DNA of 64,000 nucleotides from a virus. Lineage: Duplodnaviria > Heunggongvirae > Uroviricota > Caudoviricetes. A program made the position numbers. This document shows, piece by piece, positions 6,001 to 9,000 of the stretch (positions are counted from its first letter, which is position 1; each line of letters starts with the position of its first letter). The stretch is taken from IMG/VR virus record IMGVR_UViG_2721755655_000008. One strand, written 5' to 3'.

Positions 6001-9000
6001 GCTTAGTTACCGCTCTGATAACTCTTACCTGTCCGGCAATGGCGCTGATATCAATATAAAGCGCCATCGCTGTTTCTTTGCTGATCCCTGGACGCCTTCC
6101 ATTCTGATGTTTGACTCGCCCACTGAGAAATCCTCTGCTTCCCCTTAACGCCGGGTAGCGGAACTGTTTGCTGAGAACACCGTGCGGTGTCTTGATGAGT
6201 AGAATTTAGAATAGCCTAAGAGTTATGGTCAAGCTTTTTGTGTAGAAAAACCTAAGCTTCTTGATGTAAAAAACACAAGTATTTGAAAGTTTGTGCTTTT
6301 TATTACAGAGAGTTGCGAAAAAAAGGGGGGTTATTTATTTGCGCTTCTTTTGCGAGCTTTGAGTAGTTCTTCAAAAAGTTTGTTGAAATTCTCAACTCGA
6401 GCACGCATCTCTGACAACAGAGCCTTTTGCTCTGACTCAGGCAGTGCGTCGAACAGTTGAAGCAACTCTTTTTGATCTTCTGTCAGATTGACTGGCTGAT
6501 TATCTGGGATCGGTTCGCCTGGTTGCTTATCTTCATCTCCAAAAAGAAGCCAAGTCGGCGAGCACTGAAGCGCCTGGCTCAGTGCGAATAATCTCTTCCC
6601 CGCTGGCTGTGTTTCATCTCTTTCCCATTGAGAAATTGTTACGTGAGCGACTTTGACCAGCTTACCTAATGCGGCCTGAGACAGTTTTAATTTTTTTCGC
6701 CTGTATAAGAGGCGAGCACCGAAGGTTTCGTTTTTCATATTAGGTAATTCTAATTTTTCTTGACTTAGGTTTCTCTACGATCTAGTTTCCTTAGGAAAAT
6801 CTAAGGGTTTCGATATGTTGAAAATTGATGCTATAGCGTTTTTTGGCAGCAAAACAAAGCTTGCCAATGTCGCAGGAGTTAGGCTGGCAAGCGTTGCTGC
6901 ATGGGGGGAACTGGTTCCTGAAGGTCGCGCGATGCGCCTGCAAGAGGCATCCGGCGGGGAACTTCAGTACGACCCCAAAGTTTATGACGAATATCGTAAG
7001 GCAAAGCGGGCGGGGCGGTTGAACAATGAAAATCACCACTGAACAGGTTTGTGAGGCTCTGGATACCTGGGTATGCCGACCAGGAATGACACAGGAGCAG
7101 GCGACGATATTAATCACGGAAGCATTCTGGGCTCTGAAAGAACGCCCGAACATCGATGTTCAACGCGTCACGTTTAATGATGGCGAGGTTGATCAACGGG
7201 CGCTGGGCGTTAACCGGGTGAAGATATTCGAACGCTGGAAAGCTATCGACACCAGAGATAAGCGTGACAAATTCACGGCGCTGATTCCGGCAATTATGGA
7301 GGCTATCCGGATCAGCGATTTCAGATTGTATTGTGAAATTACTGACGGAAAAAGCATTACGTACATGATCGCCGGGTTAAACAAAGAATATGGCGATGTG
7401 GTGGAGTCCGGGCTGCTTTTTGCGGATCCAGTTGTTGTGGAACGTGAGACTGACGAGCTTATAGAAAAAGCTATTGCTTTCAAGCACGCGTATCGTCAGC
7501 AATACCAATATTACTTTGCAGATAAACAAATGTCTGCCAGGGGGGCGTATGAGTATCGATGCACTACGATGGGCTAAAAAGGTGAAAACCGGCAGTTCAT
7601 CCAGTAAGTCAGTATTGACCTGGCTTGCTGATATGTGCGGTGCCGATTTGTGTGCATACCCGTCTGTATCTGCACTGGCAGAAGTAACGGAACTGAACAA
7701 AAAGACTGTGCAGGACAGCTTACGACACCTGATGGAGATTGGGTTAATTGTTGATACCGGTGAGAGAAAAGGCAGAACAAAGCAAATTGTGGTGTACCGA
7801 CTTATCGGTGTAGAAGAAAGTGTTGCCGAGCCTGAATACACCCAAAAACGGGAGTCTTTAAAGGTGGGTAAAATTGGTGCTGTTAATAAAAACAGTACCG
7901 AAAATGGTTATGTTTCAGCACAAAACAGACCCAAAAACAGAACTCTTAGCTGCATGGAAAATAACCAAAGACACCCAAATTTTCCATCAAAGACACCCAA
8001 AAACGGATCACGGAACCCAAAGGAACCCAAAGATCTAAACCCCACACATAACGCACGCGAGAGTGCTCCGACCAGTGAGCAGGAAGTTTTGTCGTTACAG
8101 GCAGCCCCCCCTGTATTCCTGTATGGCCTGAGCGAACCCATCGGAAAATTCCCGATGAGCGATAGCTGGTATCCGTCACGGGATTTTCGACGACGGGCTG
8201 CGTTGTGGGGGATGGCTTTGCCGGAGACAGAATTTACACCTGCTGAACTTGCCGCCTTCCGGGACTACTGGGCAGCGGAGGGGAAAGTGTTTACGCAGAT
8301 TCAGTGGGAGCAGAAATTCGCCCGTCACGTAAATCACGTCAGGGCGCAGGTTAAACCAGTCAGCAAAGGGGTAAACCATGCAGCAGCACCAGGTGGCACC
8401 GCATCACGGGCAGTTCAGGAAATTCGGGCAGCACGTGAGCAGTGGGAACGTGAAAACGGATTTATCAGCGACGGAAACGGCCTGGAAGCTGTGGGAACTC
8501 ATGGGGGTGGTTTATTCGAACCGCTGGATCCAGAAGAACGGGGCCGCACCTTCGAAGCTCTGGATTGCACAGATTGGCGCGATGACTGAGCAGCAAATCC
8601 GGCAGGTCTGCCGCCAGTGCATGGACCGCTGCCGGGCGGGTGAAACATGGCCTCCGGACCTGGCTGAGTTTGTGGCACTGATTTCGAAAAGCGGAGCCAA
8701 TCCATTCGGTCTGACGGTGGATGCTGTGATGGAGGAGTACCGCCGCTGGCGCAATGAGTCCTGGCGATACGACGGAAGTGATAAGTACCCGTGGTCTCAG
8801 CCTGTGCTGTATCACATTTGCCTCGAGATGCGTTCAAAGGGGATTGAGCGCCAGATGACCGAAGGGGAATTAAAACGGCTTGCAGAACGGCAACTGACGA
8901 AATGGGCAAAGCATGTTAGTAACGGCCTGAGCGTTCCGCCAGTCCGGCGACAACTGGCGGCCCCCAAACGCCCGTCGGGGCCAACGCCAATTGAGTTGCT

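Follow-up and report, generated by a model that had tools for sequence, protein, structure and literature searches.

Can a phage exchange the specificity of its replication initiator and, in the same step, exchange the origin that goes with it? The question is raised by a 64-kb window of DNA, 100% identical to positions 3078124-3142123 of Escherichia coli O157:H7 strain PA20 (NZ_CP017669.1), in which two lambdoid prophages lie in tandem. In both, the early-right operon encodes a Cro/CI-type regulator, a YdaT-family protein, a DnaT-like single-stranded DNA (ssDNA)-binding domain-containing protein, replication protein P and a DUF1627 protein (as annotated by RefSeq in the matching, identical stretch of PA20; gene names are those of RefSeq/PGAP throughout). 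The third of these genes is the subject of this study. It bears only the DnaT-like label in RefSeq/PGAP, and its two copies are referred to here as initiator genes 1 and 2, after their prophages (Table 1). In each prophage the initiator and helicase-loader genes are found downstream of the genes in the cro and cII positions, within one operon. Our analysis indicates that each prophage probably has a lambdoid-style replication module whose origin lies inside a mosaic initiator gene, with a specificity cassette that travels with the N-terminal domain of the protein. A preliminary description of the window had proposed that origin specificity is exchanged as a module together with the origin. This proposal now appears well supported computationally: the position of the joint between shared and unshared DNA, constraint on the repeats at the DNA level, repeat motifs that follow the N-domain, and an AT-rich tract after the second repeat cluster of gene 2 all agree with it.

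The two genes share one half and differ in the other. BLASTP comparison of the proteins returned a strong C-terminal match and no similarity over the N-terminal ~160 residues, and the N-terminal parts (~163 amino acids, aa) reach only 17.8% identity in a forced global alignment; the earlier statement that these halves are unrelated is thus borne out. From LNPTH onward, 150 of 184 residues are identical (81.5%), which confirms a shared C-terminal module; "near-identical", the term first applied to it, is too strong. At the DNA level the homology (78% over ~1.95 kb) extends from 8036 to 9979 and from 59569 to 61515, through P and the DUF1627 gene, and upstream of 8036/59569 nothing can be aligned between the prophages. 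In both genes the joint at this position adjoins the 3' side of the repeats and an AT-rich tract.

The repeats are direct and all copies in both genes lie on the coding strand. In gene 1, the heptamer ACCCAAA occurs six times (+ strand, at 7840, 7929, 7973, 7995, 8015 and 8025, with spacings of 89, 44, 22, 20 and 10 nt). Six of the ten matches in the window fall within these 192 nt, where ~0.007 would be expected. Five of the copies had been placed at 7927-8033, correctly, and the upstream one at 7840 had been overlooked. The real unit exceeds the heptamer: an 11-mer, CCCAAAAACGG, is found at 7841, 7930 (one mismatch) and 7996, and a 22-bp unit beginning CAAAGACACCCAAA at 7966 and 7988. In gene 2, the core GTCAC is present 11 times, with ~0.38 expected in the span (P ~4e-13). 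Six cores, starting at 59204, 59214, 59224, 59234, 59245 and 59256, make up cluster 1, and five, starting at 59485, 59495, 59505, 59516 and 59526, make up cluster 2, with 229 nt between the clusters. The initial count of eleven GTCACG in two clusters with ~10-bp phasing holds for the GTCAC core, at spacings of 10-11 nt; only nine copies are exact GTCACG. Cluster 2 was called independently by Tandem Repeats Finder, with a 21-nt period. The arrays end 4 nt (gene 1) and 37 nt (gene 2, cluster 2) before the homology joint. Each initiator coding sequence therefore holds at least four direct repeats at the boundary between N- and C-terminal domains (six and five copies, with six more at 59204-59260 in gene 2). 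Consensus scans for internal promoters or terminators at the repeats gave results at or below shuffle expectation.

Repeats inside a coding sequence might simply reflect the peptide that they encode. The copies use all three codon phases in both genes, namely 0/2/1/2/1/2 in gene 1 and 2/0/1/2/1/0 and 1/2/0/2/0 in the two clusters of gene 2. Because a period of 10-11 bp puts the copies in different codon phases, they specify different residues (SR, VT, CH and others) and do not form a peptide repeat. Searches with the C-module and with N-domain alignments, from which the 80 closest relatives were taken, served the tests of polymorphism. In 37 distinct gene 2-type N-halves (IMG/VR relatives, Evi-type phages and the Aeromonas phage pAEv1818), third-codon positions vary at 3 of 18 sites inside the GTCAC cores, against 107 of 147 elsewhere in the N-half (p=5.6e-6). 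Within the clusters, 8 of 55 core positions are variable, as compared with 28 of 48 in the 5-6-nt spacers (p=3.8e-6), a footprint-like pattern. In 38 distinct relatives of gene 1 none of the 36 core positions varies, against 63 of 453 positions elsewhere (p=0.009), and the block that holds the four 3'-most repeats is invariant (Table 1). Repeat copy number differs among relatives, and insertions or deletions in the gene 2 clusters measure 21 bp, the length of two repeats and also of seven codons: phages of the Evi type are shorter by this amount in cluster 1, and pAEv1818 in cluster 2. Twenty-one base pairs is the smallest step that keeps both reading frame and helical register. Given the codon phases, the constraint on synonymous sites, the 21-bp steps and the concerted switching described below, the repeats are, as judged from these alignments, elements of the DNA and not a by-product of coding.

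A broader sample was assembled by tblastn against phage records and by protein searches followed by reading of the homologues' contigs. In this sample the sequence of the repeat tracks the N-domain subfamily, so far as comparison of the genes can tell. The GTCACG class comprises gene 2, phage Evi, pAEv1818 (70% aa identity; same N-domain, both GTCACG clusters and the same 229-nt gap) and a relative designated P0033 (66%; 4+3 copies). Relatives P0079, P0113 and P0107, with 55-57% identity to the gene 2 N-domain, carry CGAACGC, and P0105 (54%) carries GTAACGC. Each gene 2-type homologue has the same motif in both clusters, at ~10-bp spacing, and an AT-rich repeat of the GATAAAGATACA type follows cluster 2 throughout. 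Since clusters 170-240 nt apart take the same new motif, linkage alone does not explain this concerted switch. On the gene 1 side, the core CCCAAAAACGG is common to gene 1, to phiV10 (same N-domain type, 48% identity; 7 copies) and to Klebsiella prophages (74-78%; 4-5 copies), and in a relative at 52% the motif is GTCCCAACAA, set in 22-bp units similar to the one in gene 1.

An origin of the lambda kind would also call for an easily melted tract beside the repeats. In prophage 2 the segment 59534-59573 is the least stable 40-mer of the interval 58300-61400 (nearest-neighbour energy of -42.4 against a mean of -57.1 and a standard deviation of 3.7 kcal/mol, that is, 4 standard deviations); it lies directly 3' of cluster 2 and is kept there in all relatives examined. 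In prophage 1 the segment 7858-7897 ties as the least stable 40-mer of 6800-9900, at only 2.3 standard deviations from the mean. The flanking unwinding elements envisaged in the preliminary description are thus clear in prophage 2 and only partly so in prophage 1.

What kind of proteins carry these cassettes? The N-domain of initiator 1 scores 20.9 bits against Pfam HTH_36 (PF13730), for which the cut-off is 25; its counterpart in the phiV10 initiator, 48% identical, scores 40.9 bits, and homologues at 74-79% identity carry a precomputed PF13730 annotation. This part of the protein also has PHROG "O-like" matches (4e-12 to 1e-7). The N-domain of initiator 2 has no Pfam match, and Phage_rep_org_N (PF09681) is absent at E<=0.01; its homologues are named "phage replisome organizer" in NCBI sources, and there are weak PHROG matches to replisome organizer (E=5.8e-6) and DnaD-like families. 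An AlphaFold model of the N-terminal part of initiator 2, built on 54 homologues, has a pLDDT (predicted local distance difference test) of 89-95 over most of aa 11-100. Residues 43-62, which are encoded by cluster 1, form a low-confidence hairpin between two helices, and residues 105-165, encoded by cluster 2 and the AT-rich tract, are mostly disordered in the model.

The C-modules belong to another family. Both initiators match the DnaT C-domain (PF17948) at 61-63 bits (cut-off 25) and the PDB DnaT chains 4ou6, 6aep and 9zbt (E ~1e-19, ~50% identity). That the modules might represent DnaT itself was considered and rejected, as the NCBIfam DnaT equivalog NF002770 gives 93-95 bits against a cut-off of 201 and is matched over profile positions 82-166 only. 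Membership in the lambda O family by sequence was likewise rejected: neither initiator matches a lambda-O Pfam family at E<=0.01, and only the N-terminal part of initiator 1 has the PHROG "O-like" matches mentioned above. The name "O-like", under which the genes were first described, suits their position and role, not their descent; that description missed the DnaT-type nature of the C-half, which is not a lambda-O C-domain, and the fact that the arrangement is textbook lambdoid. Existing annotations call members of this gene family phage replication initiators or "primosomal protein I".

The joint recurs in independent mosaics. Similarity of gene 2 to phages Evi, Tritos and 606R7 stops at window positions 59561-59567; only 59000-59567 is held in common, and beyond the joint these phages have an unrelated C-terminal domain and no P gene. 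In the ydaU gene of Rac-SA53 a third N-domain (DUF1376) is attached to the same C-module, and the homology starts at the same joint within a few bases. The tblastn survey of phage records found at least six N-domain types on DnaT-domain initiators (phiV10; pAEv1818; Rac; TL-2011b/SPN1S/epsilon15; Tyrion/KPC3phi13.3; Chris1), and some of these initiators are followed by the short P, others by a 261-aa P-like protein or a DnaC-like loader, and others again by no such partner. Gene 2's own N-cassette is combined with other C-modules and loaders: Evi and Tritos have no P gene, pAEv1818 has a DnaC-like loader, and P0079, P0113 and P0033 have a DnaB-like helicase. Among 5426 complete E. coli genomes, 2129 carry the gene 2 N-cassette, 908 the gene 1 N-cassette and 1253 the C-module, and a whole-gene query (window 59000-60250) is contiguously covered (>=80%) in only 658. 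As the joints are shared by independent mosaics, the N-domains and partners vary and the genome counts differ, the specificity cassette (N-domain, repeats and AT-rich tract) is seen, in these comparisons, to reassort freely with the C-domain/loader cassette. The notion that co-resident prophages avoid a common origin specificity was rejected: up to four gene 1 and five gene 2 N-cassettes occur per genome, and strain TR01 has three copies of each together with six C-modules.

The anatomy of the genes, the constraint on the repeats, their concerted switching and the mosaic joints lead us to infer how N-domain binding, unwinding, recruitment of P and origin firing might follow from one another. 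Each initiator would consist of a sequence-specific N-domain, a disordered linker whose DNA forms the phased repeats and the AT-rich tract, and a DnaT-type ssDNA-binding C-domain with a tail. Several molecules would bind through their N-domains to the same-strand repeats, whose spacing of about one helical turn places them on the same face of the helix. Together they would form a nucleoprotein complex that strains and opens the AT-rich tract beside it (in prophage 2 at 59532-59573; less clear in prophage 1), the DnaT-type domain would hold the single strand, and the C-terminal tail would recruit the P-DnaB complex. As N-domain and repeats are the same stretch of DNA, they would be inherited as one specificity cassette, and recombination at the conserved joint (TAAACCCCACACATAACGC, 8036/59569) would reassort it with the C-domain/loader cassette.

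Several observations weigh against this reading. The very fact that N-domain and repeats are physically the same DNA means that their co-inheritance alone is no proof of recognition, and for this reason the functional argument has just two legs, the concerted change of the two clusters and the constraint on synonymous sites. In phiV10 and the Klebsiella relatives many copies stand in a single codon phase at 18/24-nt spacing, so that part of that array could be a peptide-repeat duplication. Helical phasing of the two gene 2 clusters as an aid to looping was not supported, the gap between them being variable (229 nt in close and Aeromonas relatives; 238, 211, 200/221, 191 and 171 nt in others). 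In prophage 1 the AT-rich tract is found within the array and not on its 3' side, and it is less stable than average by only 2.3 standard deviations. A Foldseek search of the PDB with the model of the gene 2 N-domain gave no match at E<=1e-3, its weak top matches being winged-helix regulators. A literature search on the origins of these initiators, of ydaU or of DnaT-type phage initiators found no relevant paper. Finally, those lambdoid prophages of Sakai whose repressor is of this non-cleavable kind show only weak or spontaneous replication (PMC2669165).

One could go further and envision a two-part origin in the gene 2 family. Cluster 1 would be written into the coding sequence of the domain that recognises it (variable hairpin, aa 47-56) and cluster 2 would lie ~170-240 bp downstream beside the unwinding tract, with the initiator bridging or looping the two; the specificities of site and protein would then shift together. 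We regard this version as rather doubtful. If true, changes in the repeats would be confined to 21-bp steps and a change of motif would rewrite part of the binding domain, few mutational steps would separate one matched pair of site and protein from the next, and the family would have a built-in route to new origin specificities.

How else might the repeats be explained? The constraint data would suit any sequence-specific binding, and cluster 1, separated by 229 nt from the AT-rich tract, could serve as an accessory or control element. The repeats might then have a regulatory or competitive role, such as autorepression of the initiator/P operon, handcuffing and copy control, or titration of the initiator of a rival phage, with the origin lying elsewhere. 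Co-resident prophages do carry the same N-cassette, in up to 3-5 copies per genome, and two reports (PMC3349717, PMC4488673) describe inhibition of lambdoid replication by ectopic iterons. We nonetheless consider this explanation improbable, since three features copy the layout of the lambda origin exactly: the repeats lie in the linker, the least-stable AT-rich tract adjoins them, and a loader gene follows downstream. Within the operon no rival repeat or AT-rich candidate was seen, and DnaA boxes (TTATNCACA) are absent from the whole window.

It is harder still to credit the repeats to neutral slippage or duplication in a tolerant linker, constrained by coding only and yielding a harmless or useful peptide. 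The linkers are predicted to be disordered, copy number varies between relatives and phiV10-type arrays do contain in-phase peptide repeats such as PKNGMLND; against this, the 10-11-bp period shifts the codon phase and yields unlike peptides, synonymous sites are conserved in the cores and variable in the spacers, the same new motif appears jointly in two clusters separated by more than 170 nt, and cluster 1 falls within a folded domain, not a linker. We take slippage to be extremely improbable. The sites might also be relics, both prophages being defective and their origins and initiators no longer working in this strain. Portal, tail and integrase genes are frameshifted, insertion sequences (IS) interrupt the prophages, and the majority of the lambdoid prophages in Sakai have a defect in one function or another (PMC2669165). 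Yet the reading frames of initiator and P are intact in both prophages, identical genes with invariant repeat cores occur in hundreds of genomes, and the same study, which observed excision and replication of several Sakai lambdoid prophages, rated O and P as "apparently functional" in the whole set with a single exception (PMC2669165). This makes the relic explanation very improbable; in any case, it bears on the present activity of the element and not on its nature. An origin borne by the specificity cassette is the reading that we retain.

The loaders are true members of the lambda P family, with 61.2 and 57.9 bits against PF06992 (cut-off 26), and the PGAP start of loader 1 overlaps the initiator stop codon (ATGACTGA). 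Several observations bear on where these genes begin. The loader frame is open for 207-225 nt on the 5' side of the PGAP starts (8582 and 60112), over the 3' end of the initiator in another frame (8378-8589; 59911-60119). Its translation, ..DLSATETAWKLWELMG.VYSNRW.QKNGAAPSKLWIAQIGA followed by MTEQQ.., is kept in Citrobacter phage Chris1, is conserved in a 57% relative, and resembles the N-terminal part of the full-length P of phiV10. Matches to the P families begin before the annotated start, by 9 aa for PF06992 and by 50 aa for PHROG_109, and PHROG_15931 (482 aa) covers both the initiator and loader genes. The start of P is probably mis-annotated and the true one located upstream, with a dual-coding overlap that probably spans about 90-210 nt, and at least 89 nt.

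DnaT-domain initiators differ at their extreme C-terminus (the final ~15-45 residues; 8460-8589 and 59990-60119 in the window) according to the loader gene that follows. A tail of the form ...EALDC.DW.DD accompanies the short P (window genes, Rac, Chris1-like), ...VPHWNSPEAWEDFL accompanies the 261-aa P-like protein (phiV10, Tyrion, KPC3phi13.3), and a DnaT-like tail, ...EIPPGFRG or ...KPPGFN, is found where there is no P gene (Evi, SPN1S) or a DnaC-like loader (pAEv1818). The pattern suggests a second layer of modular matching, between tail and loader.

How do these modules relate to known systems? In lambdoid phages (lambda, phi80, 82 and P22 hybrids) the N-half of O is type-specific and the C-half contacts the loader P. 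The plan seen here is that of the lambdoid O-P module, including those of Stx phages 933W and P27: an initiator gene in the early-right operon, an overlapping P-type loader gene downstream, and direct repeats with an AT-rich tract in mid-gene, in DNA encoding the linker, where extra repeats add codons. The origin of lambda and Stx phages (iterons and AT-rich tract) occupies the central part of gene O, which in Stx phages is lengthened by 13 codons through an additional pair of iterons (PMC7466680). The present initiators differ in not being O homologues, their C-half being a DnaT-type ssDNA-binding domain; in having short cores 10-11 bp apart instead of the four or six ~19-bp inverted-repeat iterons of lambda; and, for gene 2, in a second cluster inside the sequence that encodes the DNA-binding domain. 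Another parallel is the replisome organizer of the SPP1 G38P type, in which an N-terminal origin-binding domain acts on an origin of short direct repeats and an AT-rich region within its own gene, with more than one binding region. The likeness is one of general plan, and gene 2 homologues bear the name "phage replisome organizer"; the C-terminal partner differs, being a DnaT domain with a lambda-P loader in place of the SPP1 G39P/G40P system. As for E. coli DnaT, a protein of the primosome and of replication restart, the C-module has its three-helix ssDNA-binding C-domain at ~50% identity. Unlike DnaT, it matches residues 82-166 only, a putative origin-binding domain takes the place of the N-half, and another tail replaces the ...PPGFRG tail where a P gene follows.

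A further parallel is offered by the DnaT-domain initiators of phiV10 and epsilon15 (Uetakevirus), Rac ydaU, TL-2011b, SPN1S, Tyrion and pAEv1818, which bear the annotation "replication initiation protein" or "primosomal protein I", likewise consist of a variable N-domain, a linker and a DnaT domain and differ in their C-tails and loaders (261-aa P-like, DnaC-like or none). Obvious direct repeats are lacking with some types of N-domain; phased ones, for instance, were not found in the DUF1376-type ydaU of Rac-SA53. That locus has, at 1445-1477, a perfect 10-nt inverted repeat (TGTTCAAACA-13 nt-TGTTTGAACA) just 5' of an AT-rich tract encoding KDTDTD. In the linkers of the Tyrion and KPC3phi13.3 initiators (~1482-1505 and ~1470-1493 of their loci) a 7-bp tandem repeat, GGATCAG x3, places three GATC (Dam) sites in 21 bp; it is a candidate for an origin element of a different style.

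Some features of the surroundings may be noted. Genes of the YdaT "toxin" family (7026-7577 and 58582-59007) occupy the cII position directly 5' of each initiator gene; the one in prophage 1 overlaps the initiator start, and no DNA homology is detectable between the two. Prophage 1 opens with an integrase gene (1-1131), continues with early, lysis, head and tail genes and closes with the effector genes nleA, nleH1-2 and nleF, and prophage 2 begins past IS elements and a truncated integrase. The junction (~46100-53400) is a patchwork of a frameshifted integrase, a tail-fibre fragment, nleH1-2, nleF, ISEc8, an IS256-family transposase and a second truncated integrase, and it also holds an open reading frame (ORF) of the EAST1 toxin family within transposase remnants. 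A 162-bp tandem repeat (29010-29602; 3.7 copies, 97% identity) lies in a gene annotated as a frameshifted phage portal protein, and a 21-nt tandem repeat (2259-2366; ~5 copies, 73% identity) in a large exonuclease gene on the minus strand. The replication region of prophage 1 is 99.6% identical to that of "PPompW" prophages (phage records LC567818 and others); several such records are ~90 kb long and named for an Stx2a-converting phage, the PPompW prophage being one annotated feature within them.

Table 1. Coordinates of the replication-module features in the two prophages (window positions)
Feature	Position	Strand	Evidence
Initiator gene 1 (346 aa)	7549..8589	+	ORF list; RefSeq; PHROG "replication initiation protein" families, E down to 1e-90
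Gene 1 N-terminal putative origin-binding domain, HTH_36-like winged helix (aa 1-96)	7549..7836	+	Pfam; homologues
Repeat (iteron) array 1, encodes linker aa 97-161	7836..8032	+	Motif search; relatives
AT-rich spacer, 65-70% AT, between repeats 1 and 2; weak candidate unwinding element	7858..7925		Duplex stability
75-nt block with the four 3'-most repeats	7958..8032	+	Invariant in 38/38 distinct relatives; adjacent 127 nt have 32 variable sites
Shared C-terminal module, gene 1; DnaT C-domain aa 197-267 (nt 8137-8349), then Gly/acidic tail	8036..8589	+	Pfam PF17948 9e-17; PDB
Lambda-P-type helicase loader 1	8582..9043	+	Phage_lambda_P 1.3e-16; PHROG_109 1e-61
Initiator gene 2 (347 aa)	59076..60119	+	ORF list; RefSeq; PHROG
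Gene 2 N-terminal "phage replisome organizer"-type domain (aa 1-135; folded core ~aa 4-100)	59076..59480	+	Homologue names; PHROG; AlphaFold
Repeat cluster 1, gene 2: six GTCAC cores, 10-11 bp spacing, encodes aa 43-62	59204..59260	+	Motif search
Repeat cluster 2, gene 2: five GTCACG cores, 10-11 bp spacing, encodes linker aa 137-152	59485..59531	+	Motif search; Tandem Repeats Finder
AT-rich GATAAAGATACA repeat, 72% AT, candidate DNA-unwinding element, encodes DKDTDKDTDTEL	59532..59573		Duplex stability; Tandem Repeats Finder period 12
Shared C-terminal module, gene 2; DnaT C-domain aa 199-268 (nt 59670-59879)	59569..60119	+	Pfam; PDB; DNA homology
Lambda-P-type helicase loader 2	60112..60573	+	Pfam; RefSeq; 90% aa identity to loader 1

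The arrangement is the known lambdoid principle at work in a less-studied initiator family and not a new mechanism; the two-cluster layout of gene 2, the 21-bp quantum of its insertions and deletions and the concerted switches of motif may be new. The lambda rule, by which the origin travels with the specificity domain of the initiator, would thus extend to initiators that are not homologues of O. Candidate origins are now proposed at the sequence level for two O157:H7 prophages that carry effectors (paa, nleA, nleH1-2, nleF) and for a family of prophage initiators that is very common in E. coli, and the sites that one might mutate or titrate to block replication of these prophages are marked. 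The GTCACG, CGAACGC and GTAACGC classes offer clean natural specificity variants with which the co-evolution of initiators and origins could be approached.

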